64,000 nt of DNA from an uncultured Anaerolinea sp. (GTDB lineage: Bacteria; Chloroflexota; Anaerolineae; Anaerolineales; Villigracilaceae). The stretch covers positions 7,336 through 71,335 of the forward strand of contig CAZKSG010000001.1 in assembly GCA_964555335.1 (NCBI GenBank), read 5' to 3'. A program made the position numbers and the translations under genes. Of the stretch, positions 26,497 through 44,534 are shown piece after piece; position 1 is the first letter of the stretch, and each line of letters starts with the position of its first letter. A model generated the notes under the pieces. The model did no database searches. It was not told the origin of the DNA and was given only the letters and a program-made list of their open reading frames with translations.

Positions 26497-26852
26497 CGCT
26501 TTCGCTGTTGTTTTATGATTTGCACTGTCTATAAAAATATAAGTCAGTACATCCTGAGAAAAGGGGGCGTTGGAATATGGCGGGATAACTCTGCAATGTT
26601 TTTAATATGTAACCTTTACCCTAGCTGACAACTTTTCGAAATGCGATACGACTATTCCGGTATGGGAGTACTCGCTCTGTTCGGGCATCGATTCAAGAAT
26701 TGGAATATGGGCGGTATCTTGTTCGATTTTGCAATGTGTTTGCAATGCGAAGTCTGCATGCGAGTGCCTATTGATGTGCGGGTCCTATGCTGCGTGTTGC
26801 CTGCAAGAAATATTCCGTTTTATCAAAGTAAATATTTTTTAGAGAAGATATT

Positions 26853-28220
26853 ATGCGATATGTAATTGTTGGTTCTGGAGTGGCTGGGATCGCAGCCATT
26901 GAAGCGATCCGTTCTGTGGATAAATCGGGAGAGATCATACTGATTGGAAATGATCCGCATGGTTACTATTCCCGCCCCGGGCTTGCCTATTATTTGTCGG
27001 GCGAGATCCATGAACAGGCGTTGTTTGCAAAACGTGCCGAGGATTTCCAAACGTTGCATGTCCGATACATTAAAGGGCATGTAAAAGGTGTGCTTCGCGA
27101 TCAGCGTTGCCTGGAGCTTGAAGGATACGGCTATGTGCCGTACGATCGTTTACTCCTTGCGCTGGGTGCGGCTGCCATCCCATTGGATATGCCCGGTTCC
27201 AAACTGAATGGGGTACTCAAATTGGATCGTTTAAGTGATGCCCATACGATCGTAAAGCTGGCAAAGAAAGGTAAGACGGCCGTGGTGGTGGGAGGCGGAA
27301 TTACAGCCCTTGAACTTGTCGAAGGACTTATGGCAAGAGGCATGAAAGTCCATTATCTCTTGCGGGGGGACCGTTACTGGAGCAATGTGCTTGATTATCT
27401 GGAGTCGAAAATCGTTGAACAACGGTTACAAGAAGAGGGCGTAAAGCTGCATTACTTTTCAGAGATCACTGAAATTGCGGGAAAACACAATCATGTTAAT
27501 TCAGTTCGCTTAAAGGATGGAACCAGTATCCATTGTGATCTTTTGGCTTATGCCATTGGCGTTCAACCTCAAACCCATTTGGCCAGGATGGCTGCCCTCG
27601 ATGTTGACCGTGGAATCCTGGCGAATGAGCGCATGCAAACGAACGACCCCAATATCTTTGCGGCCGGAGATGTGGCCCAGGCGTACGATCTGAGTTCCAG
27701 ACGTTGGGTGGTGGACAGTTTGTGGAACACTGCCCGCGAGCAGGGGATGATCGCGGGATGGAATATGGCGGGTTTGAAGAAGGTGTATTTCAAATCTGCG
27801 CCCCTTAATGTGACCAGGCTGGCTGGGCTGACAACAACCATCATCGGGATGGTTGGACGCGGAAGGGACGAAGATTTGGCCGGTATCGCTCGCGGAGATA
27901 GTGAAACGTGGCGTCAATTACCTGATGTGATGGTGGCGCAATCTGGTTTTGAAGTGAATCGTCTGCGCGTAATGGTGGGGGAGCAGACATTGATCGGCGC
28001 AATTGTCATGGGTGACCAAACCCTTTCCATGCCTCTGGAAAAGATCATTTCTAACAAGGTAAATATTTCCCGCATACGAAACGCTCTTCTGTCACCCAAT
28101 GCAAATATTTCAGACGTACTGGCAACGTTCTGGGCGAACTCCACAGATCGTGGGTTGTATTCGCAGCAAATCACCATCCCCAGAAATTCGGCTTTGAGTC
28201 AGCGAGGTATCCTGCCATGA
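26853..28220 (+). CDS. FAD-dependent pyridine nucleotide-disulfide-type oxidoreductase (NAD(P)H-binding)
   Basis: N-terminal IVGSGVAG dinucleotide fold, a second VVVGGGITALE fold, and the AAGDVA motif. No signal peptide or TM segment. The stop lies 12 nt before the cytochrome gene. Confidence 0.85.
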   Translation: MRYVIVGSGVAGIAAIEAIRSVDKSGEIILIGNDPHGYYSRPGLAYYLSGEIHEQALFAKRAEDFQTLHVRYIKGHVKGVLRDQRCLELEGYGYVPYDRLLLALGAAAIPLDMPGSKLNGVLKLDRLSDAHTIVKLAKKGKTAVVVGGGITALELVEGLMARGMKVHYLLRGDRYWSNVLDYLESKIVEQRLQEEGVKLHYFSEITEIAGKHNHVNSVRLKDGTSIHCDLLAYAIGVQPQTHLARMAALDVDRGILANERMQTNDPNIFAAGDVAQAYDLSSRRWVVDSLWNTAREQGMIAGWNMAGLKKVYFKSAPLNVTRLAGLTTTIIGMVGRGRDEDLAGIARGDSETWRQLPDVMVAQSGFEVNRLRVMVGEQTLIGAIVMGDQTLSMPLEKIISNKVNISRIRNALLSPNANISDVLATFWANSTDRGLYSQQITIPRNSALSQRGILP

Positions 28221-28232
28221 AAAAGGAGGAAG

Positions 28233-30887
28233 ATGAAGGCAAAGCGCCGAAGTTTTCTGGCAAGTGCAGGATTTGCCGCCGCAATCATCGCTGCATTGAT
28301 GATCGCGGCCTCTGCCCTCGCGAGCGGTGGGTCCATGTATAGCCCGGGCGCTTTGAATGCACAGCCCGGCAATTTGCTGGGTGGCGTCTCTTCGCATGCT
28401 GATATTGCAGGAAACTGCAAAGCCTGTCATGCCGCCCCGTGGGAAGCAGACACCATGGATGACCGTTGTTCGACGTGCCACGTGAATGTTGCAGCGCAAA
28501 TGCTCGTCCCTGCATCGGTCCATGGCCGGATGATGCAGATCGATCCGCAGGCAAAGTGTCGGACCTGTCACCCGGAGCATAAAGGACCGAATGCGCTTCT
28601 TACGGTTCTGGAAGGGTGGCGATTCCCTCACGATGTGGCGCGTTTCAAATTAAACAGTCACCAACGAACGGCTGAGAAGGAACCGTTCCTGTGCGCTGAT
28701 TGTCATGGAGAGGATGTCACCCAGTTCGATGAACTGACCTGTCGTAAATGTCACATCCTCAAAGATATGGCGTTCATGGTAGAGCATCAGGTAATGTTTG
28801 GGGAGAACTGTCTCGAATGTCATGATGGAGTGGAACGCTTCGGGCACGATTTCGATCACAACCAATTCGCTTTCCAATTAACAGGCAAACATGCTGACGT
28901 GAAATGTTCCCAGTGCCATGTTATGGCAAGGACACTTTCTGCTTTGCAGTTGGCCAAACAGGATTGTCTCTCCTGCCATGCAAACGATGATCCACATCAT
29001 GGAAGTCTGGGACCCGATTGTGCTGCATGCCATACCCCCGATGGATGGAGTCCATCAACCTTTGACCACAATCGTTCCATTTTTAAATTGAACGGTGCCC
29101 ACGTACAAGTGGCCTGCGAGAAGTGCCATATGAATGCTATGTTTAAAGGCACGCCCCTGGATTGTTTCTCGTGTCATCAACAAAACGATGCACACATGGG
29201 CCAGTTGGGCAGAACTTGCGAGAAATGCCATGCTACTGCCGCGTGGCTTCCGGCCCAGTTCGATCACAACACGACGGGTTTCGTGCTGACAGGTTCGCAT
29301 GTTAATGTAGCATGCAAGTCCTGTCATATCAACGGTATATACAAAAATACGCCCAGGGATTGTTTCTCCTGTCACGCTGCAAGAGACGTTCACAATGGAC
29401 AATATGGGAAAAATTGTGGAGTATGTCATCAGACTACACAGTGGCTGCGCGGAAAGTTCGATCACAACTTCACTGCATTTCCACTTGTTGGCAAACATGT
29501 AAGTGTAAGTTGCATGACCTGTCACCGGAACGACATTTTTAAAGGCACTCCCAAGAATTGTTTTTCCTGCCACGCGAAGGACGATCACCATAACGGACAA
29601 TTTGGGAGGAATTGTGCGATCTGCCATGCGCCCAATGACTGGAAGAATATCATCTTCGATCACAATACCAGCGCCTTCCCGCTGACGGGCAAACATGCCC
29701 AGTTGAATTGCACACAGTGTCATACATCGGCACAATTCAAAATCCCAACGGAATGTTCATCCTGTCACACTGAACCGGCCTTCCATGTAGGTGCATTTGG
29801 GACGAATTGCGCGCAGTGTCATACCACCTCTTCCTGGCCAGGTGCAACGTTCCTCAGACCCCATCCTGTAGCGCTCGGTCAAAACTTTTTGGATCATCAT
29901 GGAGCCACCTGCAAGACCTGTCATACGATCACAGTGCATGATTTTACATGTCTGGCTTGTCATGAAACCAATCCGCTTCCACCAGGGGGCGGTGCTGAAC
30001 CGACAAGTACACCAGTTTCAACACAGACTCCAATTGCAGCTGAACCCGCTGTGTTGACATCCATTACACCTTCCACGATCCACGTAGGCGATACAAGCCA
30101 GTTGACCATAAGCTTGAATAACGTACCTGCCCAGGGCTATGCAGGCACTGAATTTACCTGCACGTACGATCCCACCCTTGTGGATGTCAGTGACATCAGC
30201 ATTGGAAATCTCTTTGGTCCAGACACGGTTTCGGGACTATTCGGTCCCGAAAATGGGAGTTTTATTCTCGCTCTCGCAGGAAGCAATGGCAGAAAAGCCT
30301 CAGGCAGTGGCACTGCATTCACATTCGATGCGAAGGGATTAAGGGCCGGGCAGACCAACATCGAATGTAAAGCCCGCGTATCGGAAGGACAGAACGCCCT
30401 TCAAAGTATAGGCTCCCTGCCGTCAACCATGACCATTGATGATGTATCTCCTACATCCACAGCCACGTCAGCCTCCGTTTCCATCACTGGGCAGGTCCTT
30501 GCCAGCAAACCGGCGACGATTCAGTTGTACAGCCCGGATAACTCCATTGTCGCAACGAGTACGACCAACCCAGATGGAACTTTTCTCATCGCCGCCCCAA
30601 TTGGGACGTATACGATCACAGCTTCAGTAGAAGGATTCCTTGGCGCGCAAGGTTCCGTTACGGCCGCCAGTGGCGGCACGATCTCGATGCCGGTTGTCAG
30701 TTTGATCGCCGGTGACATTGATGGCAATGGGGTCATCGATCAAATGGACGGACTCACCATTCGCATGAACTACAACAATACAACTCCCACTGCGGCAGAT
30801 CTGAACAACGATGGCGTAATCAATGTTCTCGATCTGGGAATTCTTGCGGAGAATTATGGCAGATCAGGCGCGCTGCTTTGGCCATAA
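28233..30887 (+). CDS. Multiheme c-type cytochrome (23 CxxCH) fused to cohesin-like, CarboxypepD_reg-like and dockerin modules
   Basis: I counted 23 CxxCH motifs in the translation. N-terminal signal/anchor KRRSFLASAGFAAAIIAALMIAASALA. Five tandem 66-aa triheme units. C-terminal VPAQGYAGTEFTCTYDPTLVDVSDISIGNLFG (cohesin-like). GDIDGNGVIDQMD...DLNNDGVINVLD (duplicated dockerin Ca-binding loops). Confidence 0.85.
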   Translation: MKAKRRSFLASAGFAAAIIAALMIAASALASGGSMYSPGALNAQPGNLLGGVSSHADIAGNCKACHAAPWEADTMDDRCSTCHVNVAAQMLVPASVHGRMMQIDPQAKCRTCHPEHKGPNALLTVLEGWRFPHDVARFKLNSHQRTAEKEPFLCADCHGEDVTQFDELTCRKCHILKDMAFMVEHQVMFGENCLECHDGVERFGHDFDHNQFAFQLTGKHADVKCSQCHVMARTLSALQLAKQDCLSCHANDDPHHGSLGPDCAACHTPDGWSPSTFDHNRSIFKLNGAHVQVACEKCHMNAMFKGTPLDCFSCHQQNDAHMGQLGRTCEKCHATAAWLPAQFDHNTTGFVLTGSHVNVACKSCHINGIYKNTPRDCFSCHAARDVHNGQYGKNCGVCHQTTQWLRGKFDHNFTAFPLVGKHVSVSCMTCHRNDIFKGTPKNCFSCHAKDDHHNGQFGRNCAICHAPNDWKNIIFDHNTSAFPLTGKHAQLNCTQCHTSAQFKIPTECSSCHTEPAFHVGAFGTNCAQCHTTSSWPGATFLRPHPVALGQNFLDHHGATCKTCHTITVHDFTCLACHETNPLPPGGGAEPTSTPVSTQTPIAAEPAVLTSITPSTIHVGDTSQLTISLNNVPAQGYAGTEFTCTYDPTLVDVSDISIGNLFGPDTVSGLFGPENGSFILALAGSNGRKASGSGTAFTFDAKGLRAGQTNIECKARVSEGQNALQSIGSLPSTMTIDDVSPTSTATSASVSITGQVLASKPATIQLYSPDNSIVATSTTNPDGTFLIAAPIGTYTITASVEGFLGAQGSVTAASGGTISMPVVSLIAGDIDGNGVIDQMDGLTIRMNYNNTTPTAADLNNDGVINVLDLGILAENYGRSGALLWP
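28851..29852 (+). repeat. Tandem array of triheme modules (210 nt, then 4 x 198 nt period)
   Basis: The in-frame FDHN anchors at 28851, 29061, 29259, 29457 and 29655 are each followed by G.H....C..CH ... FKGTP.(D/N)CFSCH ... D.H.GQ.G..C..CH. Confidence 0.85.
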
Positions 30888-31011
30888 TCACTGTCGAAAA
30901 GGAGGTACCAATAAAAAGATGTGTAACAGTAAAGCTAATGATTAGGTTTGAGAAACCCACCAGGTGAGAAGTATGGACTTTAGAAAAATGTGTCAGCCGA
31001 AGGAGAATAGA

Positions 31012-32316
31012 ATGAAGAAGAAGAAAAGACAATACAGAGAACTGAATCGAATTATGATGATCGTTTCTGGAGCGATTATCCTGCTCGCAGTCATGATCGC
31101 TTCATCCAGTCCGCAATCAGGCAGCGCGGCGCCAGGCGATTTGAGCAGCGCGATGGCCAAATATCCGAGCCTCTCCACCAGCAGCCTGAATACTTGCGAT
31201 CTCTGCCATACTGCCAGTATTCCCAGTTTGAACCCCTATGGTGCGGCGTATAAATCCAATGGTAGAAATACTGCCGCCTTTGGAGCGATCGAGAATATTG
31301 ATTCAGATGGTGACGGGTTTACCAACATCCAGGAGATCAATGCACTCACCTTCCCTGGAAATTCCGCGAGTAAACCGGCCGCTGCTCCAACTGCGACGAA
31401 CACACCGGCCCCCACAAATACCAGTGTTCCGAATCCAACAAACACGCCGATCTCAACGGTGGTGGCGCCATCTGCGACACCCACCGCTCCATCCAGTTTG
31501 GCGTCTGTAACGACGGGACTGAATCCATCGAGTGTTACGGTGGGCGGTTCTTCTACAGCTTCGGTCAGCCTGAGCAACGTCCCGGCCGGAGGGTATGCCA
31601 GCGTTGAGTTTACCTGTACCTATAACCCAACGATCGTGGAAGTATCCAACATTGTTGAAACTGGCCTTTTCGGAACCGACCCGGCCATGGTAATCAATGG
31701 TCCTCAAAACGGGAGTTTCATTGTCGCCATCGCAGGTAGTAAAGGAAATAGAGCATTGACAAGTGGTGCAGCCTTTTCGTTTTCCGCAAAAGGGTTGCAG
31801 ACGGGACAATCCACCATTGACTGTCAGGCCCGCGTCTCTACCGGGAACCTTGTTCTCGTCAGCATTCCTTCCACGCCAGCCAACCTTGTCGTTGGGTCCA
31901 CACAAGGTACGTTCTCTGGGCAGGTCCTGGCGGGTAAGCCAGTAACAGTCACGTTGTATGATGCTGGCAATGCAGTTGCAGGCTCTATTGTTGCAAATAC
32001 AGATGGAACCTTCAGCCTCTTGAGCAATGCCGGAGCATACACGGCGGTCGCTTCAGCGCCTGGCTACCTCAAAGCCCAGGGTTCCATCAGCATCACAAGC
32101 GGCAATACAACGACCCTGCAAACCATCAGCCTGATCGCAGGTGACATCGATGGGAATGGTGTGATCGATCAGTTTGACGCCCTGACGATCGGTATTAACT
32201 ACAATGGAACAGTGCCGAGTGAGGCAGATCTGAGCAACGATGGCACCATCAACGTGCTGGATCTGGAAATTCTGGCTCTCAACTATCGCAAATCTGGTCC
32301 GTTGGTTTGGAACTAA
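31012..32316 (+). CDS. Secreted/anchored CxxCH protein with EF-hand-like loop plus cohesin-like, CarboxypepD_reg-like and dockerin modules
   Basis: The ATG at 31012 follows AAGGAG. N-terminal anchor, a single CDLCH, DSDGDGFTNIQE, a PT linker, GYASVEFTCTYNPTIVEVSNIVETGLFG (cohesin-like), and GDIDGNGVIDQFD...DLSNDGTINVLD (dockerin). Confidence 0.8.
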   Translation: MKKKKRQYRELNRIMMIVSGAIILLAVMIASSSPQSGSAAPGDLSSAMAKYPSLSTSSLNTCDLCHTASIPSLNPYGAAYKSNGRNTAAFGAIENIDSDGDGFTNIQEINALTFPGNSASKPAAAPTATNTPAPTNTSVPNPTNTPISTVVAPSATPTAPSSLASVTTGLNPSSVTVGGSSTASVSLSNVPAGGYASVEFTCTYNPTIVEVSNIVETGLFGTDPAMVINGPQNGSFIVAIAGSKGNRALTSGAAFSFSAKGLQTGQSTIDCQARVSTGNLVLVSIPSTPANLVVGSTQGTFSGQVLAGKPVTVTLYDAGNAVAGSIVANTDGTFSLLSNAGAYTAVASAPGYLKAQGSISITSGNTTTLQTISLIAGDIDGNGVIDQFDALTIGINYNGTVPSEADLSNDGTINVLDLEILALNYRKSGPLVWN

Positions 32317-32370
32317 AACATACTTGCAGTACGGGCGCATTTTTCAATGCGCCCGTACACTGGAGTTGCC

Positions 32371-33024
32371 ATGAAAAAGATTTCCGCCCTTATTTTTGTC
32401 CTCATTATTTCTCTCATATCTGTTTTTGCTGTGAATGCCCAGTCTGCCGAGACGATCTGGATCCAGCCGGTTACCACTACTTACAAAACCATGGAAACAG
32501 TTACGGTTACTCTTAACGGCAATGCAACTACACCCATTCAGGGGTTCACGGCTCAGATCCGATATGACCCTGCATGTCTGACACCCATTAATGGAACGAG
32601 CCCCATCCCTGGCATGAATGGACTGGCTGTCCCTCAAACATCGGGTCTGGCGGATGTGTCATTTGCAAGTACCACACCTCAAATGGCAAATGGTGTGTTA
32701 GCCGAGGTGCGCTTTACGGCTCTTAAGGGTTGTCAGACGAATCTCGCCATTGAGACAGCGGCCCTTGTCGTTCGTAATGAATCGGGATTTGCCGTCCCGA
32801 TCCCCGGGGTGACCATCGATCAGAATGCTGTTGTGTTGAATATCGACAATGCAGTGGGAAACGCTCAACCGGAAGCAACGGGAGAATCTGTGTTGCCCCT
32901 TAGACCAGCTGGTATTCCCGAGCGAAAGCCTTTCGATTGGATAGTATATGTTTCATTGGCTCTGGCCGGCGTTCTTATCGTATCGATCGTGGGTCTATTT
33001 AAATTTATGAGCCCATCGAGTTGA
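32371..33024 (+). CDS. Signal peptide - single cohesin-like domain - C-terminal TM anchor protein
   Basis: MKKISALIFVLIISLISVFAVNAQS signal, then IQGFTAQIRYDPACLTP...ANGVLAEVRFTALKGC (cohesin-like), then the C-terminal helix WIVYVSLALAGVLIVSIVGLF. No dockerin. Confidence 0.75.
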   Translation: MKKISALIFVLIISLISVFAVNAQSAETIWIQPVTTTYKTMETVTVTLNGNATTPIQGFTAQIRYDPACLTPINGTSPIPGMNGLAVPQTSGLADVSFASTTPQMANGVLAEVRFTALKGCQTNLAIETAALVVRNESGFAVPIPGVTIDQNAVVLNIDNAVGNAQPEATGESVLPLRPAGIPERKPFDWIVYVSLALAGVLIVSIVGLFKFMSPSS

Positions 33025-33046
33025 CATTCAACGATTGAGTGTGATT

Positions 33047-33078
33047 GAGTCAGGTGATTGCCATGGCAATCACCTGAC
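33047..33078. terminator. Perfect 32-nt palindrome terminator
   Basis: agtcaggtgattgcca / tggcaatcacctgact followed by TTTATTT. It lies between convergent genes. Confidence 0.75.
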
Positions 33079-33145
33079 TTTATTTAATGGGTTACAGGTG
33101 TTCGTTATTTTGGTGATTCAAAATCCCCTGCAATTAAGCAGCCTG

Positions 33146-35319: not shown

Positions 35320-36180
35320 ATGACTAATCTGAAACGTTCGTTTTTCTGGGCTGCATCGTACATCGGGGTTATCTTTATTCTTGGGCAGGCTGATTATATG
35401 GGCCGGCCGATCATCAATTTTGCATCCTACTTTTATCTGGCGGTGATCGTCGCGACGCCGCTGACTCTTTTCTTTCCATACGTCTCAAGAGTTTCGGTGT
35501 ATGTTCCAATGTCGGTTTGGGCGGGCGTTTACATGATTTTGCTCCAAATACTGGATAGGAGACGTTCAACAGAAAATATAGAGTTTTCCGTCATCGTATT
35601 GGAATTTGTCTTGTTGGAGATCGGAGTGTGGCTTGCCTATCAATTAGCCATGCAGATCAGTCACGCCGAATCTCTTATGGATGCTCTGGCTTTGAGTGCA
35701 TTCCCAAACCGGACCCATACCATAGAGGCGGAGGAACAGCGGATCAAAGTTGAGATTACTCGCAGCCGTCGGTACCATCGTCCATTGAGTTTGGTGATCA
35801 TGGAATCAGAGACCGAAGGTGAAAAAAGCACCAGGGCAATGCTGAAAAGTATCCAACATGACCTCTCAAGCCGCTTCGCATCTGCCCGGGTCGGACAGAT
35901 CATCGATGATCGTATCCGCCAGACTGATTTGCTGCTGAGAGATCATAGGGGAAGGTTCATCATCGTTTGCCCTGAAACCGACCTTTCGAATGCGACATTA
36001 CTCGCCAAAAGGATTTCACAGTCAGTAAAGGAAAAAATCGATCTTGATGTGTATTGGGGAGTGGCGGCATTCCCGGAAGATGCACTTACATTTGAAGATC
36101 TGTTGCACATGGCTCGCGAGCGTTTAATTCGTTTTACTCCGCTGCCTGACGAGAGCGTTACCGCATATCATCCCAACTAA
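35320..36180 (+). CDS. Membrane protein with degenerate GGDEF domain (I-site retained)
   Basis: About 4 N-terminal TM segments. In the C-terminal domain the canonical RxxD-xxx-R-x-GGDEF reads RQTD-LLL-R-D-HRGRF. Confidence 0.7.
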   Translation: MTNLKRSFFWAASYIGVIFILGQADYMGRPIINFASYFYLAVIVATPLTLFFPYVSRVSVYVPMSVWAGVYMILLQILDRRRSTENIEFSVIVLEFVLLEIGVWLAYQLAMQISHAESLMDALALSAFPNRTHTIEAEEQRIKVEITRSRRYHRPLSLVIMESETEGEKSTRAMLKSIQHDLSSRFASARVGQIIDDRIRQTDLLLRDHRGRFIIVCPETDLSNATLLAKRISQSVKEKIDLDVYWGVAAFPEDALTFEDLLHMARERLIRFTPLPDESVTAYHPN

Positions 36181-36191
36181 AAAGGTACAGC

Positions 36192-36872
36192 ATGAGTACA
36201 TTGCATGTGGCATCTTATACTGAAGACGATTGGATCAGGAAATTCGATCCCCGAAAACGCATTTTGACCGGAAAGGCATACCTGCTGGTAAAACGACTAT
36301 TTGACTTGTCTCTTGTGTTGTTTACGCTTCCCCTTTGGTTGCCTCTTAATGGGGTGATTGCCCTGGTAGTCCGCCTTACATCTCCTGGTGCTCCCGTCAT
36401 ATTCAAGCAACTCCGTACCGGAAAAAGCGGGCGCCGTTTTCATATGTATAAATTTCGTACGATGGTGCCAAATGCTGAAGAGTTGAAACAAAAATATGCG
36501 CACTTGAATGAACTTCAGTGGCCGGATTTTAAAATCACCAATGACCCGCGGATAACACCCATAGGACGATTTTTACGCAAGACCAGTCTGGATGAAATCC
36601 CGCAGTTGTTTAATGTGCTGCGCGGTGAGATGAGCCTTGTAGGACCTCGTCCCACGTCATTTGGTCCCGAAACATATAAGCTTTGGCATACGCATCGACT
36701 TGATGTAATGCCCGGGCTGACCGGATTATGGCAAATTGTAGGCCGAGCCCAATTGGAACTGGATGACCGTCTTCGACTGGACATTGCCTATATCGAACGT
36801 GCGAGTCTGTGGCTGGATATCAACATACTATTCCGAACCGTTATGGCCGTCTTTGAACAACGTGGTGTTTGA
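36192..36872 (+). CDS. Polyprenyl-phosphate sugar-1-phosphate transferase (bacterial sugar transferase, initiating PGT)
   Basis: KR.FD, single reentrant helix, F.M.KFRTM, DE.PQL.NVL.G.MS.VGPRP and PG.TGLWQ. Confidence 0.9.
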   Translation: MSTLHVASYTEDDWIRKFDPRKRILTGKAYLLVKRLFDLSLVLFTLPLWLPLNGVIALVVRLTSPGAPVIFKQLRTGKSGRRFHMYKFRTMVPNAEELKQKYAHLNELQWPDFKITNDPRITPIGRFLRKTSLDEIPQLFNVLRGEMSLVGPRPTSFGPETYKLWHTHRLDVMPGLTGLWQIVGRAQLELDDRLRLDIAYIERASLWLDINILFRTVMAVFEQRGV

Positions 36873-36910
36873 AACAGATTGCACTACATAAATCAAACCA
36901 AGGAAATACC

Positions 36911-38047
36911 ATGGAACTAAAGCTCTATTTCAAAATGTTAAGGACAGGCTGGTGGCTGATTTTGCTGACAGGCATGATTGCCCTTGCTGTTTCTTTGATC
37001 ATGTCATATACAGCTGTGCCCCTTTATATGGCCTCCGCGCGTTTCATCATCAGTCCGTCGCCATCCTTGACCAGCGGCGGGGATGTAGTGCGCAGCCTCG
37101 ATACGCTGGATCGTCGTTCCGTAGTGGCAACGTACGCAGAGATTATGAACAGTAACCGGGTTATTTCCGGGGCATCCGAATCCATAAATCTTGACCCTCT
37201 TGCCTTGACCAAGAATTATGAGATTCAGGCCGTGGTCCTGCCGGATTCAAGCGTCTTGGAATTGAATATCTCTGGACCGAATCCTCAAGTTGCTGCCGAT
37301 CTTGCAAATGCAGTTGGATATCAAACGATAAACTATACTCGTAACCTGAATTTGGTATACGACCTTAATTTTCTTGATACCGCGCTGCCCAATACAGTTC
37401 CATTCAGTCCCGAACCGCTGCGTGATGGCGCGGTAGCACTGGTAGTGGGAATGGCTGTAGGCGCTGTATTATCCATTTTGAGCGAACAAATCCGCATCCC
37501 GATTGAAGCGTATCGTCAACGTTTGCGCATTGATAGCGCAACAGGAATCTACAATGCCAGTTACTTTTCCCGTTTGTTGACAGAGGAGCTGGGACGAAAT
37601 CCCGACGATGCTTTGTCTATGGCCATCGTGGAATTAAGTGGACTTTCTGATTATCTGGAAACGCTCCCTCCTGCCGGGTTGCAATCCCTGCTCGTAAAAG
37701 TCACCCAAATTTTGCGCAGAGAATTGCGCGGTAACGATAGTATTGCGCGTTGGAACGATGTTAGCTTTGCAGTAATGTTGCCTGCCACCGATGGACCCGC
37801 ATCCAGCAGGACCTTTAACCGAATTTATCATGCTCTTCTCCGGGCAATTGATCTTTCTGCCTATGGTGTAAGTGTGAACTTAGATCCCCATATTGGAGGC
37901 GCAATTTATAGTAATAATCTTACTGCGCAGGAATTATTGGAGAGGGCACAGGTTTCCCTTGAACAGGCCCGGCGGGATAGCACAAGGCCCACCTATGTTT
38001 GGGAAATGAAGAGTCCATTTTGGGTCCAACCCGAAAAGGGAGAATAG
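36911..38047 (+). CDS. Wzz-type polysaccharide co-polymerase fused to a degenerate GGDEF domain (I-site retained)
   Basis: Two TM segments flank an extracytoplasmic Wzz-like region (Y...R.WW.I......A...S........Y.A...). The cytoplasmic tail DSATGIYNASYF...RGND-SIA-R-W-NDVSF aligns with D.LTGL.NR...RxxD-xxx-R-x-GGDEF. Confidence 0.7.
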   Translation: MELKLYFKMLRTGWWLILLTGMIALAVSLIMSYTAVPLYMASARFIISPSPSLTSGGDVVRSLDTLDRRSVVATYAEIMNSNRVISGASESINLDPLALTKNYEIQAVVLPDSSVLELNISGPNPQVAADLANAVGYQTINYTRNLNLVYDLNFLDTALPNTVPFSPEPLRDGAVALVVGMAVGAVLSILSEQIRIPIEAYRQRLRIDSATGIYNASYFSRLLTEELGRNPDDALSMAIVELSGLSDYLETLPPAGLQSLLVKVTQILRRELRGNDSIARWNDVSFAVMLPATDGPASSRTFNRIYHALLRAIDLSAYGVSVNLDPHIGGAIYSNNLTAQELLERAQVSLEQARRDSTRPTYVWEMKSPFWVQPEKGE

Positions 38048-38060
38048 ATCCAGCATCATT

Positions 38061-39560
38061 ATGAAACTGGCTCCTTTTATCTCATCTCCAATATATCGGT
38101 TTTTTCTATCAAGAGACAACGCGTTATCGGGCATATTTCTTGCGGCCGCGATTATCTTGGGATGTGTTGTCGCGGTAATAGGCAAACAAGTTGGGTGGGT
38201 GGGCTTGGCTGCTGCTCCCGCCCTTTTGTTTGTGATGATGGTATTGATCCAGCCTGAAATTGGTTTGGTGGCATTTGTCTTTATTGTCGTTATCCAATTA
38301 ACTCCGGTAATCAATAATAACTATCCTGGGATACCCTCGCCTGCGTTTCTTTTGCTGGGATTATTGGTGTTTATGATCCTTTGGCGAATGGTTGTATACG
38401 GTGATCGTTCCATGGGATGGAAACGTGCCAGTGTCATATTTGTGATCATTGTTTTTTGGCTTTTGTCTGTTCTTGTTGCAGAAGATTTTGGGCTCGCTTT
38501 TGATAAATTTCGCAAGTTTGCCGAAAATGCTCTCCTTGTATTTGTAGTCCTGTTCTTTGTCCAAAGACCAATGTCCCTTCGCAACGTAATCTGGACTTTG
38601 TTGGCGGCGGGAATTTTCATGGCTACCATTAGCATTATTCAGAATTTGACATCCACCTATGACAATAATTATTGGGGATTTGGTACCTGGGAGAGTTCAT
38701 CCGTTGACGGAGTAAGCAATCATAGGCTGGCGGGACCGTTCGGAAATCCCAACGCATATGCCCAGGTGCTGGTGATGTTGGTGCCTCTGGCATTGGATCG
38801 CCTTTGGCATGAAAAGGACCCTCGGTTTCGCTTGTTAGCAGTGTGGGCCTTTGGGGCTTGTATACTGGCCGTGTTCCTGACCTATTCGAGGAATGGGTTT
38901 GTTACATTGTTATTCACTCTTGGATTTTTGTTCGTTATGCGTCGCCCAGGTGTGTTGCCGTTAATGCTTTCAATGATCCTGATGCTTGTACTGTTTCAGG
39001 TTTTACCCGCCTCGTATACTGATCGTATTACCACCCTTTTTCAATTTTCATCTTCCAATTCATTACAACAGGTTTCCGACGAGTCATTTCGTGGGCGTTT
39101 GAGCGAGAACATAGCTGCCTGGAGGATGTTCCAGGATCATCCCTTGTTGGGGGTGGGGTTGGATAACTTCCAAGTTAATTACCAGAATTATTCGCGCCAA
39201 ATTGGGCTTGACCCGCGGAGGGTTGAACGTACTCCGGCAAGTTTTTATCTTGAATTGCTTGCAGAGCAGGGATTGATAGGTACCACGATTTTCATTTCGT
39301 TTTTAGTGATGGTCTTTTGGACTCTATGGAAATCCCGGCTTCGGTTTCAATCGATAGGTATGGTGGATGAAGCGTATATGGCATTAGCCTTTATGTCGGG
39401 ATTGGCCGGATATATGGTGTTTTATGTTTCGAAAAACAGTTCTTATTCCAATGTCTTTTGGCTGTTACTTGGAATCGCCCTTTCAATAGGACAAATTGCT
39501 GAAAGCAGTGTTGGCTCATTCATGCAGAGATTGAACCGTCCCTTTAAGGAGAAGCAATGA
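38061..39560 (+). CDS. O-antigen ligase/polymerase family (Wzy-like) membrane protein
   Basis: At least 10 TM segments with a large loop and a YSRNG-containing segment typical of the Wzy_C/O-antigen ligase domain. Confidence 0.75.
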   Translation: MKLAPFISSPIYRFFLSRDNALSGIFLAAAIILGCVVAVIGKQVGWVGLAAAPALLFVMMVLIQPEIGLVAFVFIVVIQLTPVINNNYPGIPSPAFLLLGLLVFMILWRMVVYGDRSMGWKRASVIFVIIVFWLLSVLVAEDFGLAFDKFRKFAENALLVFVVLFFVQRPMSLRNVIWTLLAAGIFMATISIIQNLTSTYDNNYWGFGTWESSSVDGVSNHRLAGPFGNPNAYAQVLVMLVPLALDRLWHEKDPRFRLLAVWAFGACILAVFLTYSRNGFVTLLFTLGFLFVMRRPGVLPLMLSMILMLVLFQVLPASYTDRITTLFQFSSSNSLQQVSDESFRGRLSENIAAWRMFQDHPLLGVGLDNFQVNYQNYSRQIGLDPRRVERTPASFYLELLAEQGLIGTTIFISFLVMVFWTLWKSRLRFQSIGMVDEAYMALAFMSGLAGYMVFYVSKNSSYSNVFWLLLGIALSIGQIAESSVGSFMQRLNRPFKEKQ

Positions 39561-41041
39561 ACTCTGCAGATGAACGACCGGAATTTGGCGTTGTCGCGAT
39601 CCGGGGCACGGCATGGAGATATGCATCTTATTTTGGCGGCAAATTCCTGGTGTTTCTCAGCACAATTGTTTTAGCTCGTTTGCTGACAAAAGATGATTTT
39701 GGGTTGGTTGGATATGCACTAACCACGATTGCGTTTTTAGACGTTGCCAGCGATCTGGGGGTTGCTGAAGCGGTGGTGTATCACAAAGAGGATAAAGTTA
39801 TTTATTCAACAGCCTTTTGGATAAGTCTGGCTATCGGTATTGTTTTGTTCGGCTTGTCCTGGGTGTTGTCCCCATTGTTGGCTGTTTACTTTCGTGACGA
39901 GCGTGTTGTTGAGATCAACCGTTTGATGGCACTTACCTTCCCTTTTACTGCATTGGGGAGTACGCACGAGGCGATTCTTCGCAAGAATTTATCCTTCGAT
40001 CGTGCTGCCGTTCCTGTATTTTTACGTGCGGTAACAAAAGGGGTGGTGTCGGTTGTTTTGGCGTTTATGGGATTTGGGGCCTGGAGCTTGGTATGGGGAC
40101 AGGTGAGCGGTCCGCTCATTTCTTCCATTGTATTATGGGTGATCACGCCGTGGAAGCCTACCATTGATTTCGATCTGAGCAGGGCGTCATCGCTTCTGCG
40201 GTATGGCATGAAAAACATTGGCTCTGACTTTTTATCCATGATCCTGCTCAACCTGGACTATTGGTTGGTTGGGCGCTATCTTGGCGCCGTGGCATTGGGA
40301 GTTTATACCCTTTCGTATCGTATGCCGGAATTGTTGATCCTGCAGTTTGCGCGGATCGTAAGCCAGGTTGTTTTTCCCATCTATACCAAGATGCGCAACA
40401 TCCCTGATGGACTTGCGAACGGCTTTCGCAAGGCAACGGCTTATGTTTCATTGGTTACAGTTCCATTGGGTTTGGGGTTGGCTCTCCTCGCCCGACCGTT
40501 TACCATCGTCTTTTTGACCGAAAAGTGGATCGATGCCGTCCCCGTCATTCAGGCGATTGCCCTTTATTCTTTGTTCCTTTCATTAATGCATAACACCAGT
40601 AGCGTGTATAAAGCGCAGGGGAATTTTAAAGTGATGATGTCAATCAGCATCGTTCGTTTGATGATTTTGTTCCCTGCTTTATGGTGGGCAACAACAGTTG
40701 CAGATTCGATCATTGCAGTAGGGTGGATGCATGTATGTGTTGCACTCATTTCATTGATCATCAGTTTGACAGTTGCGTCCCGTATATTGCGATCATCGAT
40801 TTCTGGCTTGTTTGTTTCGCTTTGGCCTTCGATCCTGGCTGGGGGTGTCATGGCGGCCTTTGTAGTTATCGTATTAAGACTGTCTGTTGACTTGCCTTCC
40901 ATCGTTCAACTGCTTCTGGCTGTTCCTGTAGGTGCATTGGCGTACGGTGCCATGTTGTGGCTGGTGTCGCGCGAGGTTGTGTTGGAAGCGGTTCGAAAAT
41001 TGCAATCTGCAATTTCCCGGCAAAAAGCAGAGACTGTGTAG
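39557..41041 (+). CDS. Wzx-type polysaccharide flippase (MOP superfamily)
   Basis: About 14 TM segments and the N-terminal pattern G..W.......K...F......LARLL.P.DFG typical of polysaccharide biosynthesis proteins. It overlaps the upstream gene by 4 nt. Confidence 0.8.
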   Translation: MNSADERPEFGVVAIRGTAWRYASYFGGKFLVFLSTIVLARLLTKDDFGLVGYALTTIAFLDVASDLGVAEAVVYHKEDKVIYSTAFWISLAIGIVLFGLSWVLSPLLAVYFRDERVVEINRLMALTFPFTALGSTHEAILRKNLSFDRAAVPVFLRAVTKGVVSVVLAFMGFGAWSLVWGQVSGPLISSIVLWVITPWKPTIDFDLSRASSLLRYGMKNIGSDFLSMILLNLDYWLVGRYLGAVALGVYTLSYRMPELLILQFARIVSQVVFPIYTKMRNIPDGLANGFRKATAYVSLVTVPLGLGLALLARPFTIVFLTEKWIDAVPVIQAIALYSLFLSLMHNTSSVYKAQGNFKVMMSISIVRLMILFPALWWATTVADSIIAVGWMHVCVALISLIISLTVASRILRSSISGLFVSLWPSILAGGVMAAFVVIVLRLSVDLPSIVQLLLAVPVGALAYGAMLWLVSREVVLEAVRKLQSAISRQKAETV

Positions 41042-41048
41042 TGCTTCC

Positions 41049-42212
41049 ATGATGAATGGCGTGGTGATGATCATCAATGATTTCGCTCCTGTTTCGGGGG
41101 GAACAGAAAAACAGGCGGAACGTCTGGCTGGCTACCTTGCCGCTCATGACCGACAGGTCTGGGTTATCACACGGTGGCGACCGGGGCTGATGCACGAAGA
41201 AGAAATGAACGGTTTCCATGTCCTGAGGGCGGGTCGTGGTCCGGGAAAATTTAAGACAGTGACATTTGTGTTGGGTTGCTTGTGGCACTTATGGCGCCTT
41301 CGGGACTCCTATGAGATCATCCACGCTCATTTGCTTTTTGGCCCGGCATTTTCTGCAGCGCTTGCCGGACGTATTCTTGGAAAGCGTGTTATTGCCAAGC
41401 TTGGGGCCAGTGGCATGTATGGAGAGATCCATATTGCTCAACGCTCGTCACGTGGGCGGCTGACGCTTGCGCTGGTTCGACGTTGGCTGAATGCATTGGT
41501 TGTGTTGGATGACGATATGAAGCAGGAGGCGATGTCGGCCGGTTTCTCTGCAGATCGTGTGATCCAAATGGATAATGGCATCGATGCGATGTCTTTTAAT
41601 TCAACCCGATCCCGTGAAGATGAAAAAACTGCATTGGGGATGACGGATAAGACTGTTGTTCTCTTTGTGGGACGCCTGGTTCAGCAAAAGTCGCTTCCAA
41701 CCCTTTTGCAGGCGATAAAGCTGGCGGTGCAATTCTCGCCGAAACTTCATCTCATGCTGGTAGGAAGCGGGGCAGAACGAGAATCTCTTGAAGCGTTGAC
41801 GCGTTCGCTGGGTATTCAAGAGTTCGTTACTTTTGCAGGCAATCAGGCGGATGTAAGGCCCTTTTTAAGGGCAGCAGACATATTTGTCCTTCCTTCTGAA
41901 AAGGAAGGCATGTCTAATGCGTTGCTTGAAGGAATGGCATCTGGACTCGCCTGTCTCTCTACGCCTGTAGGTGCCAGCCCAAAACTGCTGGATCACGGTG
42001 CGAGTGGGTTGCTCTTGCCGGTGGGCGATATTTCTGCATGGAGTAATGCCCTTGTTGACTTGGGGAACAGTCCGAATCGCCGCGCTGAGCTGGGACAGGC
42101 GGCTCGTCAACAAGTGATGAAAGTGTATGATTTTTCAGTTGTCGGTGCCCGTTATCAAATGCTTTATGAAAGTTTGACCAGACATACCGTAAGCCAGACG
42201 GAGACTGCCTGA
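41049..42212 (+). CDS. Glycosyltransferase family 4 (GT-B)
   Basis: GG.E and the C-terminal PS..EG.SNALLEGMASGL (E-x7-E region). The start was trimmed to the ATG at 41049. Confidence 0.85.
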   Translation: MMNGVVMIINDFAPVSGGTEKQAERLAGYLAAHDRQVWVITRWRPGLMHEEEMNGFHVLRAGRGPGKFKTVTFVLGCLWHLWRLRDSYEIIHAHLLFGPAFSAALAGRILGKRVIAKLGASGMYGEIHIAQRSSRGRLTLALVRRWLNALVVLDDDMKQEAMSAGFSADRVIQMDNGIDAMSFNSTRSREDEKTALGMTDKTVVLFVGRLVQQKSLPTLLQAIKLAVQFSPKLHLMLVGSGAERESLEALTRSLGIQEFVTFAGNQADVRPFLRAADIFVLPSEKEGMSNALLEGMASGLACLSTPVGASPKLLDHGASGLLLPVGDISAWSNALVDLGNSPNRRAELGQAARQQVMKVYDFSVVGARYQMLYESLTRHTVSQTETA

Positions 42213-42214
42213 TA

Positions 42215-43369
42215 ATGACCAGCGCTCGCGTTCTTCACCTTATTGACGGACTTAACGTTGGCGGGGCAGAAATGTTGCTGCGTGAATTATCGGTTGGCCT
42301 GGTTCGCCGCGGTTTTCAGGTCAACATCGGGTATAGCACTCCAGGTCCATTGGTTCAGGAGTTGAGTACGCTTGGACTGCCCCTCAGCCGCCTGCCACGG
42401 TTGATGCGAATTGATCCAATCCTTTTTGGTGGAATGGTCCAACTCATTCGAAAGATTTCGCCTCAGGTGGTGCACACGCATCTTTTCAAGAGCGATTTTC
42501 ACGGACGCCTGGCAGCTCGTGTAGCAGGTGTGCCGGTTGTCGTTTCAACTCTCCATAGCATGGATCGTTGGGCGAAAGCACGTCCGCTTGGAAGAATGTA
42601 CGGGTGGACCGCCCGTTTTGCAGATCGCTTGATTGCTGTTTCAGAAGATGTTCAGAATTTTCATGTTACTTATACTGGCGTGCCAAAAGATAAATTTGTG
42701 ACCATCGAAAATGGTGTAGATCTTCAACGATTTGTGGGACAGGAAACGGCAGGTCATGCTGTCCGCAGGGAATTTGGATTGGATGCTTCGTCGCTGGTCT
42801 TTGGGATTGTGGGACGACTCACTCCTCCGAAAGGTCATGACACTTTCATAAAAGCAGCCGCATTGATTCGACAAAAAACGCCGCAAGCCCGTTTCCTGGT
42901 GATTGGCGATGGACCCTTACGTGAGGGATTGGAAGCGCAAGCGCGCGAACTGGGGCTTGGCTCGGCAATAATATTCACCGGGTTACGCAAAGATATTCCG
43001 GCCATGCTTGCAGCGTTGGATGTGCTGGTCTTTTCGTCATTATGGGAGGGATTACCCGTGGCGCTTCTGGAAGGGATGGCAGCTGCCAGGCCCGTCGTGG
43101 CTACCACAGTTGGTGGAATCCCTGATGTGGTGTTGCCAGATAAGACCGCCCTTCTTGTCCCTCCTTCCGATGCCGATGCATTGGCTTTGGCCTGTCTGAA
43201 GGCGGCCTCTGACACTGAGATGCGGCTTTCAATGGGGCGGTTGGGATTGGAACGTGTACGCGCACAGTACAGCATGGATAAAATGATTGACCGAACGTCC
43301 GATCTGTACGCAAAGTTATTGAGCGAACATGGGTTGGGACATTTGATCCCATCACAAGTGACAAGTTGA
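42215..43369 (+). CDS. Glycosyltransferase family 4 (GT-B)
   Basis: GGAE and the S.WEGLPVALLEGMAA..PVVAT motif. Confidence 0.85.
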   Translation: MTSARVLHLIDGLNVGGAEMLLRELSVGLVRRGFQVNIGYSTPGPLVQELSTLGLPLSRLPRLMRIDPILFGGMVQLIRKISPQVVHTHLFKSDFHGRLAARVAGVPVVVSTLHSMDRWAKARPLGRMYGWTARFADRLIAVSEDVQNFHVTYTGVPKDKFVTIENGVDLQRFVGQETAGHAVRREFGLDASSLVFGIVGRLTPPKGHDTFIKAAALIRQKTPQARFLVIGDGPLREGLEAQARELGLGSAIIFTGLRKDIPAMLAALDVLVFSSLWEGLPVALLEGMAAARPVVATTVGGIPDVVLPDKTALLVPPSDADALALACLKAASDTEMRLSMGRLGLERVRAQYSMDKMIDRTSDLYAKLLSEHGLGHLIPSQVTS

Positions 43370-43373
43370 TGAT

Positions 43374-44534
43374 ATGGATCGACCGATACGTTTACTATTG
43401 GTAACAAAGTCCACCGGTGGTGTGGCAGAGTACATCCGTTGGCTGGTGAATGGGCTTCACCGGGAAAGGTTCTGTCCCACTGTTGTCTGTTTATCGGAGA
43501 ATGGACCTGAGTTTGCAGAAGAACTCAAGCAAGCATATGGGATCAAGACAGTCAGCTATGCCATGAACCGTTATAAAGTGGATGTGGTTTCAGATACCCG
43601 CGTGGGATTTCAGTTGGCGAAACTGATGCGTTCTCATGACTTTGACCTGGTGCATGCACATGCATCTAAACCGGGGTTTCTTGTGCGTATCGCCGCGTTG
43701 GGCACAGGCTTGCCTGTTTTATATTCACCTCATTGCTTTGCATTTCATGCAGGTGCCGGGCGAACGACGATATGGATTACTTCACTCCTTGAACGGCTGG
43801 CTGCATTTTTTACAACGGGTTTCATGACCGTATCTGAAGGAGAAAGGGAATTGGCACGCGATTATCACGTGGGAAGGCATGAACAATTCACCGTGATTCA
43901 CACAGGTATCGATCCCCTGCCGTATCGTCAGCCTGTGGATACCGCTCAGTTGAAGATTTCCCTGGGCATACCCGTTTCGGCGCCGGTGATTGGTTCAGTG
44001 GGCAGGCTTAGTGAGCAAAAGTCCCCTCAGGATTTTGTTCGAGTGGCAGAGGCGGTTCATCGGTCCAGGCCGGACGCGCATTTTGTCTGGGTGGGGAACG
44101 GTCCTCTCGAACCGGAAGTCCGCACGTTAAGCACATCACTCCAGTTGGATTCTGTCATCCATTGGTTGGGGCAGCGTTCCGATGTTTCCCAACTGCTTCA
44201 TATCTTTGATTGTTTTGTCCTGATGTCTCGTTGGGAAGGATTCCCGCTTGTTGTTTTGGAGGCAATGGCGGCGAATGTCCCCGTTGTGGCAACCGATATC
44301 CCCGGCACCCGTGACGCGATTCAACACGGAGTTAACGGATGGCTTGCCGCCCCTGGGGATACTGATTCTTTCACCCGCTTTCTTCTTGACCTTTTGACAG
44401 ATCCGGCAAAAGCAGATTCGTTTCGCTCTGTCAGTCGCGCACGTATAGATAATGAATTTACGCGGGAGCACATGATCGTTTCGATAGAGAAATTGTATGA
44501 ACGGGTAGTCTCCGAGGATGCTTCACGGAAATGA
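43374..44534 (+). CDS. Glycosyltransferase family 4 (GT-B)
   Basis: GG and the MSRWEGFPLVVLEAMAANVPVVATD motif. Confidence 0.85.
   Translation: MDRPIRLLLVTKSTGGVAEYIRWLVNGLHRERFCPTVVCLSENGPEFAEELKQAYGIKTVSYAMNRYKVDVVSDTRVGFQLAKLMRSHDFDLVHAHASKPGFLVRIAALGTGLPVLYSPHCFAFHAGAGRTTIWITSLLERLAAFFTTGFMTVSEGERELARDYHVGRHEQFTVIHTGIDPLPYRQPVDTAQLKISLGIPVSAPVIGSVGRLSEQKSPQDFVRVAEAVHRSRPDAHFVWVGNGPLEPEVRTLSTSLQLDSVIHWLGQRSDVSQLLHIFDCFVLMSRWEGFPLVVLEAMAANVPVVATDIPGTRDAIQHGVNGWLAAPGDTDSFTRFLLDLLTDPAKADSFRSVSRARIDNEFTREHMIVSIEKLYERVVSEDASRK

Follow-up and report, generated by a model that had tools for sequence, protein, structure and literature searches.

Results and discussion

A four-gene operon joining heme proteins to cohesin and dockerin modules

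We analysed a four-gene operon in a 64,000-nt stretch of DNA from an uncultured Anaerolinea sp. (CAZKSG010000001.1 of GCA_964555335.1, forward positions 7,336-71,335; hereafter the window). The operon encodes a 23-heme cytochrome and a monoheme protein, both of which end in a cassette of cohesin, X-module-like and dockerin parts, together with a membrane-anchored cohesin and an FAD/NAD(P)H oxidoreductase. We consider it somewhat likely that these genes form a conserved respiratory and display module, in which the cassette-bearing heme proteins are tethered via the anchored cohesin for outward electron transfer. The architecture suggests a plug-in way by which a bacterium lacking an outer membrane might mount electron carriers on its surface. 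How electrons pass through a thick wall in such cells is poorly understood. Sediments, aquifers, sludge and anode communities harbour abundant Chloroflexota, and for this phylum the case rests solely on gene counts. The locus offers a concrete and testable answer: a cytochrome with its own cellulosome-type plug and socket and a putative matching socket in the membrane.

All four genes lie on the + strand with intergenic gaps of 12, 124 and 54 nt, and the open reading frame (ORF) coordinates agree with the co-directional set described in an earlier note on this DNA. Gene 1 (26853-28220, 455 amino acids (aa)) encodes a cytoplasmic FAD/NAD(P)H oxidoreductase, probably of the ferredoxin/rubredoxin-reductase type, with two dinucleotide-binding domains. 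Gene 2 (28233-30887, 884 aa) encodes the 23-heme c-type cytochrome with the C-terminal cohesin-X-dockerin cassette, and gene 3 (31012-32316, 434 aa from the ATG, with a GTG at 30964 as alternative start) the cassette-bearing monoheme protein, which is secreted or N-terminally anchored. Gene 4 (32371-33024, 217 aa) encodes a type-I membrane protein with the anchoring cohesin. CxxCH motifs number 23 in gene 2 and one in gene 3, with none in genes 1 and 4. The 64-kb window contains no dockerin beyond those of genes 2 and 3 and no multiheme ORF beyond gene 2.

Genes 2 and 3 end in homologous cassettes

In searches against Pfam, with cut-offs of 24.1 bits for Cohesin (PF00963), 22.9 bits for Dockerin_1 (PF00404) and 32.3 bits for CarboxypepD_reg, the C-terminus of gene 2 scored above the cut-off for Cohesin (34.4 bits; aa 606-736, 30048-30440) and for Dockerin_1 (25.9 bits; aa 829-884, 30717-30884, two F-hand repeats). 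Between these modules lies an X-module-like beta-sandwich (aa 748-828, 30474-30716) that scored just below the cut-off for CarboxypepD_reg (30.3 bits). The cassette of gene 3 (31504-32313) remained slightly below each cut-off, with 21.7 bits for Cohesin, 29.6 bits for CarboxypepD_reg and 22.1 bits for Dockerin. The two cassettes are nevertheless 52% identical over 278 aa (E 1e-85) and are therefore homologous despite the marginal profile scores. The earlier note had read the same cassette in both proteins and had proposed the profile search as a check; Cohesin exceeds its cut-off in genes 2 and 4 and Dockerin_1 in gene 2, with gene 3 just below.

An AlphaFold2 (AF2) model of gene 2 aa 590-884 was obtained with a predicted local distance difference test (pLDDT) of 90.7 and a predicted TM-score (pTM) of 0.51. 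In this model the cohesin forms a nine-strand sandwich, the fold of cohesins that was also observed in the AF2 model of gene 4 (pLDDT 85.9). The sole floppy linker, aa 741-745, lies between the cohesin and the X-like module. The beta-sandwich continues without a low-pLDDT break into a two-helix dockerin (helices at model residues 248-256 and 276-284), so that the module order would fit an X-dockerin dyad, with the putative X module directly N-terminal to the dockerin. The best Foldseek match of the cassette model was the CohI9-X-DocII fragment of Clostridium thermocellum CipA (3kcp_A, 4fl4; E 5e-18, about 313 columns), to which all three modules align and which was also matched at the sequence level. 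Matches to single domains were type I and other cohesins with TM-scores of up to 0.77 (target-normalised). Since CipA CohI9-X-DocII is the best match, the cassette shares its construction with the C-terminus of a primary scaffoldin, with the CarboxypepD_reg-like domain in the place of the X-module. Pfam, AF2 and Foldseek thus agree with the order of cohesin, CarboxypepD_reg-like domain and dockerin that had been proposed for gene 2.

The best sequence match of the gene 2 dockerin in the PDB was the dockerin 2y3n_B (E 7e-5). The two loops, DIDGNGVIDQMD and DLNNDGVINVLD, carry D or N at the Ca-ligand positions 1, 3, 5, 9 and 12, and equivalent loops are found in gene 3. Two F-hand Ca-binding repeats, each with a helix, are present as in type I dockerins, and folding of the dockerin and its binding to cohesin are predicted to depend on Ca.

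Gene 3, already described as a CxxCH protein in the earlier note, shares the cassette and differs in the part in front of it, which holds the single CxxCH motif (aa 62). A hydrophobic segment (aa 10-35) precedes a monoheme domain (aa 55-129, 31174-31398), which contains a DSDGDG motif resembling a Ca-binding site and is followed by a Pro/Thr-rich linker and the cassette. Among NCBIfam families, NF041762 ('GEGP motif-containing diheme protein') corresponds in its N-terminal part to the monoheme domain (E 3e-22); a sequence search of the PDB with this domain gave no meaningful match. Judged by sequence, cleaved signals and anchors are both conceivable for the N-terminal hydrophobic segments in genes 2 and 3.

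Gene 4 encodes a membrane-anchored cohesin

Gene 4 scored 28.7 bits for Pfam Cohesin, above the cut-off, and contains no dockerin. Its AF2 model, built with 66 homologs, comprises a signal helix (aa 2-22), a beta-sandwich (aa 28-162, 32452-32856) and a transmembrane helix (aa 190-213, 32938-33009) that coincides with a hydropathy peak at aa 186-216. Pfam, AF2 and hydropathy hence bear out the earlier description of a signal peptide, one cohesin and a C-terminal membrane anchor. The 50 top Foldseek matches in the PDB were cohesins (probability 1.00, TM-score up to 0.78, target-normalised), save one CLIPPER adhesin domain at rank 33. By sequence, the best PDB matches were type II cohesins of the Acetivibrio cellulolyticus adaptor scaffoldin (3l8q, E 0.002); type II cohesins were also among the top structural matches, with type I and non-cellulosomal cohesins scoring similarly.

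The anchor family comprises 1354 homologs, some of which carry a cytoplasmic FHA domain after the transmembrane helix. Because of these paralogs the cohesin of the family is placed on the outside. FHA or Yop-YscD_cpl domains in this position occur in many genomes (L007:11292-12260; proteins P0341, P0346 and P0353-P0360; loci are given by L numbers throughout), which hints at a coupling of the outside scaffold to intracellular Ser/Thr-phosphorylation signalling. In addition, the stalk between cohesin and transmembrane helix contains an L-x-L-x-P motif (gene 4 aa 175-179, 32893-32907) that is invariant in 67 of 67 aligned anchors. This motif could serve as a processing or sorting signal, or could pack as a strand on the cohesin.

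Gene 2 carries an array of c7-like triheme units

The heme domain of gene 2 (aa 55-580, 28395-29972) consists of seven c7-like triheme units and two more hemes. Pfam Cytochrome_C7 was matched in seven stretches (E 3e-22), and an exact motif count gave the 23 CxxCH motifs previously stated for this 884-aa protein. The motifs are grouped in triplets, and from aa 207 onwards the units, which are 41-55% identical to each other, recur every 66-70 aa. With 51 His residues the heme part has enough for bis-His ligation of all hemes, and both the repeated triheme CxxCH units and the His content are those of c7-type multiheme cytochromes c (Pfam PF14522, PF14537). A single N-terminal hydrophobic segment (aa 6-36) is followed by ALA|SG, and gene 2 is predicted to be exported and to bind its hemes covalently. 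All 23 motifs are retained in orthologs of 70-82% identity, and a 54% identical ortholog has 26. No relative of the heme part was detected by sequence in the PDB at E <= 0.01. The heme domain occurs with other C-termini in thousands of Chloroflexota proteins.

Tandem triheme units are known from the c7-polymer cytochromes of Geobacter, including the dodecaheme GSU1996. Gene 2, with its seven Pfam stretches and repeats of 66 aa, likewise forms an extended array of such units. It differs from the Geobacter proteins in its 23 hemes, in its Chloroflexota lineage and in the docking cassette added at the C-terminus.

The heme module is inherited as a unit within a narrow clade

Genes 1-4 were found together in all seven loci with enough flanking sequence (the window, L001, L002/L003, L004, L005, L008 and L009; 54-82% identity). 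In L002 the order is shuffled to gene 3, gene 4, ferredoxin, gene 1, cytochrome b and gene 2, and since all four genes are still present, their linkage survives rearrangement. All parts of the module are co-inherited. The full architecture of gene 2 was found in about 20 database clusters of 54-75% identity, all of them metagenomic; those with a name belong to Chloroflexota.

The cassette itself was searched against 1.84 billion sequences that represent clusters at 50% identity. At E <= 1e-10, 351 proteins matched, and among the best 150 of these 351 one cluster was the 23-heme protein and two were monoheme proteins like gene 3. With so few heme proteins among the best matches, the fusion of heme domain and cassette forms one narrow clade of uncultured Anaerolineales.

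One entry of this family, the 274-aa protein P0121 in L008, was considered as a stand-alone cassette or a pseudogene and rejected, since the locus translates as an intact 23-heme gene. The public call starts at an internal Met within an open frame of 888 codons with 23 CxxCH motifs (L008:6159-8825). Short 'cassette-only' entries of the gene 2 family are accordingly often truncated calls or contig fragments.

Anchor and cassette derive from a widespread module with a cell-wall peptidase

Most proteins retrieved with the cassette were secreted proteins of about 410 aa without heme. They belong to a sister module (M23 module) of three genes. The first encodes a short protein that combines a PPC-like domain with the cassette; the second an anchored cohesin, whose length is about 225 aa, or about 325 aa where a cytoplasmic FHA domain is present; and the third a long protein that combines Peptidase_M23 and a PPC-like domain with the cassette. 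Examples are L006:10001-14057 and L007:10001-14415, with about 60 more in L010-L084. The sister module shares with the heme module the anchor family (55-77% identity), the cassette and the gene logic, and its order of short protein, anchor and long protein is paralleled in L002, where gene 3 and gene 4 precede gene 2. Unlike the heme module, it carries a peptidoglycan peptidase and neither heme nor a redox partner gene, and it has the look of a scaffold that holds a cell-wall hydrolase by cohesin and dockerin. No description of the operon, the cassette or the M23 module was found in the literature searched, in agreement with the earlier note, whose author knew of no such system. To our knowledge, the M23 sister module is likewise undescribed.

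The earlier note had proposed a survey of Anaerolineae and Chloroflexota genomes for co-occurrence of CxxCH-rich proteins with cohesin and dockerin. Such co-occurrence was indeed observed, and its share is small: species-representative genomes contained 76 loci, of which about 60 are M23 modules and one (L009) is a heme module. Nearly all 76 are labelled Anaerolineales, Candidatus Villigracilis or Chloroflexota. The idea that heme distinguishes the cargo of this scaffold was therefore not upheld, because anchor and cassette come from the widespread M23 module of Anaerolineales. A cassette dedicated to heme proteins was also rejected, as most cassette proteins lack CxxCH and carry PPC-like, M23, beta-helix or Ig-like parts. 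Cargos besides M23 and heme include beta-helix/NosD-like domains, N_BRCA1_IG (Ig-like) domains and unannotated regions of about 1000 aa. Our data indicate that a cohesin-dockerin system with about 1350 anchors and interchangeable cargos (M23 peptidase, beta-helix, Ig-like, hemes) is widespread in Anaerolineales. The cellulosome principle is thereby carried over to functions of the cell envelope and of respiration.

Neighbour-joining trees of cassettes and anchors, calculated without bootstrap support, place the gene 2 cassettes inside the clade of M23-protein cassettes and the gene 3 cassettes inside the clade of short-protein cassettes. Both groups adjoin the same relatives, L010-L013, and the heme-module anchors interleave with the M23-module anchors of these loci. 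The simplest reading of the trees is that the heme module arose as a copy or conversion of an M23 module, in which 23 hemes would have taken the place of M23 plus PPC, and one heme that of PPC.

Two further observations concern the cassette loci. In L056, L067 and L068 (e.g. L056:3888-5996) the cassette is N-terminal, with the dockerin ending at aa ~320-340 and followed by 380-480 aa without a Pfam match, the reverse of the usual cargo-first order. The M23-module contig L065 (CAZAGR010000161.1) is labelled 'uncultured Propionivibrio sp.', which is probably a binning error.

Gene 1 and the proposed supply of electrons

Gene 1 matched Pfam Pyr_redox_2 (E 9e-52), Pyr_redox (3e-13) and, below the cut-off, Rubredoxin_C (3e-4). 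The best NCBIfam matches (PadH, the N-terminus of NirB, HcaD and NorW) all lay far below the equivalog cut-offs. Apart from the Rossmann helices, no hydrophobic segment was seen in the hydropathy profile, consistent with the cytoplasmic oxidoreductase with two dinucleotide folds that had been assigned before. A role of gene 1 as thiol reductase for heme attachment was set aside, as the protein contains two Cys in all and no CxxC, and has YYSRPGL in the place of the PYxRPxL motif of ferredoxin-reductase-type enzymes.

In seven of seven loci gene 1 adjoins the multiheme cytochrome, with a cytochrome b gene between the two in L002. Gene 1 alone cannot pass electrons across a membrane. Relatives of the operon contain further components. 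In L002, L005 and L085, gene 1 is overlapped at its start by an intact 2x[4Fe-4S] ferredoxin gene, and L002 and L085 also encode a b561-type cytochrome of 184 aa (Ni_hydr_CYTB, E 2e-5, below the cut-off) between gene 1 and the multiheme cytochrome. In the window, such a ferredoxin gene survives as a decayed remnant, a 74-aa ORF (26641-26865, + strand) that runs into the start of gene 1. It reads CLQCEVCMRVP in place of CLECGECIARCP in the intact ferredoxins that occupy the same overlapping position upstream of gene 1 in L005 and L002. The motif is wholly lost in the closest relatives, L008 and L009. The gene sets of the relatives suggest a path from NAD(P)H via FAD, an Fe-S ferredoxin and a membrane b-heme to the multiheme wire.

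In E. coli Fre-MsrQ-MsrP and in NOX/ferric reductases, a cytoplasmic flavoprotein passes electrons to a membrane b-heme and on to an extracytoplasmic acceptor, and the flavin-based electron-transfer locus of Listeria has a dedicated Ndh2. The heme operon likewise encodes a dedicated NAD(P)H flavoenzyme together with the export route, and its relatives add a ferredoxin and a b561-type cytochrome in the manner of the flavoprotein and b-heme systems. It differs from these systems in that gene 1 is probably of the ferredoxin-reductase type and in that the operon of the window has no membrane component.

The wire could in principle also run in the opposite direction: Fe(II), a cathode or a partner cell would donate electrons to the surface cytochromes, and these would enter the cell via cytochrome b and gene 1. 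We regard this as very improbable. Multiheme wires are reversible in principle; however, it would cost energy to reduce NAD(P)+ or ferredoxin with such donors, the operon shows no sign of an energy-coupling step, and bis-His hemes of the c7 type typically belong to outward wires of low potential. In favour of uptake, an isolate of the related class Ardenticatenia is reported, in work cited in PMC7399161, to perform both anodic and cathodic electron transfer.

L085 holds an arrangement of its own: a unit of ferredoxin, Pyr_redox_2, b561-like cytochrome and multiheme cytochrome genes occurs twice in tandem (L085:2779-11959). The multiheme cytochromes have 977 and 536 aa, neither with a cassette, and the four-gene unit is a candidate for exporting electrons across the membrane in Chloroflexota.

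Proposed docking of the heme proteins

In the mechanism that we favour, the X-dockerin of gene 3, of gene 2 or of both would plug Ca-dependently into the cohesin of gene 4, and the free cohesins of genes 2 and 3 would take up further X-dockerins. By this docking, the heme proteins would be held across the wall zone in a single layer or in a few, the cell having no outer membrane. Electrons supplied from NAD(P)H via gene 1 would be passed outward by the tethered proteins to insoluble or extracellular acceptors of respiration. Large multiheme cytochromes of Anaerolineales have been proposed from genomics to carry out extracellular electron transfer (PMC7399161; 10.1101/2021.08.23.457424).

The single-cohesin membrane protein accompanies the cassette proteins in nearly all of the ~60 M23 loci and in every heme locus, which is hard to explain without a partnership between the proteins. 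Furthermore, the dockerin ranks with the best-conserved parts of the cassette and retains both Ca loops. Both observations speak against placement in a wall or sheath without any such partnership, an explanation that we consider quite unlikely. There the cassette would be a spacer or wall-binding device, and the cytochrome, held by its own N-terminal helix, would act on soluble substrates or as an electron sink. The long N-terminal hydrophobic segments of genes 2 and 3 would fit such a role, as would the peptidoglycan peptidase as ancestral cargo and the CarboxypepD_reg-like sandwich, a fold that often binds carbohydrate. Non-cellulosomal cohesin- and dockerin-like modules whose partner is unknown are, in addition, common (PMC9012536).

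Several observations weigh against tethering via gene 4 for outward electron transfer. Mutual information between the two dockerins and three cohesins, calculated over 41 locus triads, was alike for all six pairs (means of 0.26-0.30, top-10 means of 0.65-0.74). With a pTM of 0.51, the single-chain cassette model gives the cohesin no confident placement relative to the X-dockerin pair. Each protein has one cohesin, and there is no multi-cohesin scaffoldin. If the N-terminal segments of genes 2 and 3 are uncleaved anchors, tethering via gene 4 would be partly redundant, and with a cell-wall peptidase as ancestral cargo the scaffold may serve placement in the wall rather than long-range wiring. 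All sequences of the heme module and its relatives are derived from metagenomes. On the electron side, no cytochrome maturation genes were found among the window genes scanned, and the operon of the window has neither a cytochrome b gene between genes 1 and 2 nor an intact ferredoxin gene. The step across the membrane must consequently be encoded elsewhere in the genome.

The remnant of the ferredoxin gene and the missing cytochrome b would also be expected if the module were a decaying relic that no longer functions in this genome. This seems highly improbable, since genes 1-4 are intact and since orthologs of 70-82% identity that have undergone this loss as well (L001, L004, L008 and L009) retain all 23 CxxCH motifs and both Ca loops. 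Retention of the motifs in these orthologs argues for continued selection.

Residues specific to the heme proteins bear on the question of which cohesin is recognised. Heme-bearing dockerins have Arg at position 17 of repeat 1 in 17 of 17 cases (R844 in gene 2), where 72 of 74 others have Gly, and Glu at position 18 of repeat 2 in 16 of 17 (E873 in gene 2). Both positions are usually part of recognition. The gene 2 cohesin carries the class-specific charged residues K713 and E718 on or near strand 8, on the face that usually binds dockerin, and no change specific to the heme module was seen in the anchors. These charges would fit a recognition by gene 2 of cohesins of its own kind. Together with the presence of both cohesin and dockerin in genes 2 and 3, they would favour a self-polymerising wire, in which the gene 2 dockerin binds the cohesin of the next gene 2 protein head to tail, with gene 3 starting or capping the chain and gene 4 rooting it. 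We think this unlikely. The charged changes represent a single evolutionary event in a single clade, so their co-occurrence may be due to chance or hitch-hiking. General covariation is uninformative, the cassette model shows no confident docking within the chain, and about 300 aa of non-heme cassette would separate the hemes of successive subunits, which leaves a continuous heme path not obvious. By the same token, it is doubtful that a Ca-dependent, non-covalent and modular cytochrome fibre is formed through pairs of R844/E873 with K713/E718, rooted by gene 3 and gene 4 and derived by cargo swap from a peptidoglycan-hydrolase scaffold. If true, its principle of assembly would differ from that of OmcS-type heme-stacked filaments and from that of porin-cytochrome conduits. 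Tethering via gene 4 remains the reading that we prefer.

Comparison with known systems

The logic of one anchor and two cassette proteins had been likened to a cellulosome, and the match to CipA CohI9-X-DocII (E 5e-18) and the best PDB sequence matches of gene 4, type II cohesins of an adaptor scaffoldin, support this comparison. The anchoring of the C. (Acetivibrio) thermocellum cellulosome, by CipA CohI9-X-DocII and the type II cohesins of SdbA/OlpB (3KCP, 4FL4), has the same order of cohesin, Ig-like X-module and dockerin. It shares with the heme operon a separate, cell-bound receiving cohesin, Pro/Thr-rich linkers and the duplicated F-hand dockerin. The differences are considerable. CipA has nine cohesins, whereas each protein here has one, and neither a carbohydrate-binding module nor a glycoside hydrolase domain was found in genes 1-4 with Pfam and NCBIfam. 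Gene 4 is anchored by a transmembrane helix, with a cytoplasmic FHA domain in some paralogs, instead of S-layer homology (SLH) repeats or sortase; it has no SLH match and no LPXTG motif. Finally, the cargo is fused to the scaffoldin-like cassette itself and consists of heme, or of an M23 peptidase in the sister module. The system is not a cellulosome and plausibly works like the anchoring tier of one.

Use of cohesin and dockerin beyond cellulose degradation is shared with the non-cellulosomal systems of Archaeoglobus fulgidus, Clostridium perfringens glycosidases, and anaerobic methanotrophic archaea (ANME) with their sulfate-reducing partners. Cohesins of C. perfringens and A. fulgidus were among the top structural matches (2jh2, 2w1n, 2vo8, 2xdh). 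ANME and their partner bacteria possess many cohesin and dockerin proteins, for which a role in adhesion or in 'MHC adhesion' (MHC, multiheme cytochrome) has been hypothesised (PMC5244752). The possibility that these proteins include cytochromes was rejected: the ANME domain tables list no dockerin or cohesin protein with a cytochrome c domain, and 'cytochrome' appears solely in unrelated PQQ, TlpA and SCO descriptions. In the operon studied here, by contrast, the heme protein itself bears cohesin and dockerin and is encoded with its anchor. Two further reports concern cohesins or dockerins. A Borg preprint describes one extracellular heme-binding EBDH-like protein with a cohesin domain, and an earlier study of Anaerolineae found no cohesin or dockerin in its six genomes.

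The problem of moving electrons through a wall or S-layer without a porin is common to the ANME, in which multiheme cytochromes are fused to S-layer domains, and to Thermincola and Carboxydothermus. The last two have wall-associated multiheme cytochromes. The general answer is the same in all of them and in gene 2, namely a large multiheme protein fused to a module for attachment to the envelope. Instead of an S-layer or SLH domain, gene 2 would use a cohesin-X-dockerin cassette with a putative partner anchor, an attachment that would be non-covalent, modular and possibly multi-layered. An outer-membrane beta-barrel partner, as in MtrCAB-type systems, was found neither in the operon nor among the window genes scanned, and Arbour et al. 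did not find one in Anaerolineales either (PMC7399161). As the cassette and the anchor are small and well-predicted modules, they might be reused for assembling redox proteins on surfaces.

Other features of the window

The operon is closed by a perfect 32-nt palindrome, AGTCAGGTGATTGCCATGGCAATCACCTGACT (33048-33079), as the earlier note had observed. Flanked by gene 4 and a convergent amine-oxidase-like gene, it is a candidate bidirectional terminator. As RNA it would form a stem of 15-16 bp with a 4-nt loop (-25.7 kcal/mol, z -5.9 relative to shuffled sequences); the T-tract 3' of it is weak (TTATTTAAT). In a promoter scan, whose models do not cover Chloroflexota promoters, sites were no commoner than in shuffled sequence.

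Downstream of the operon, an exopolysaccharide cluster (35320-47952) encodes two GGDEF-domain proteins, one of them fused to a Wzz chain-length domain (36869-38047), as well as a sugar transferase, Wzy, a flippase, three GT4 glycosyltransferases and a BcsB-like protein. On the - strand, positions 9518-12881 contain YkuD-type L,D-transpeptidases as three tandem paralogs.

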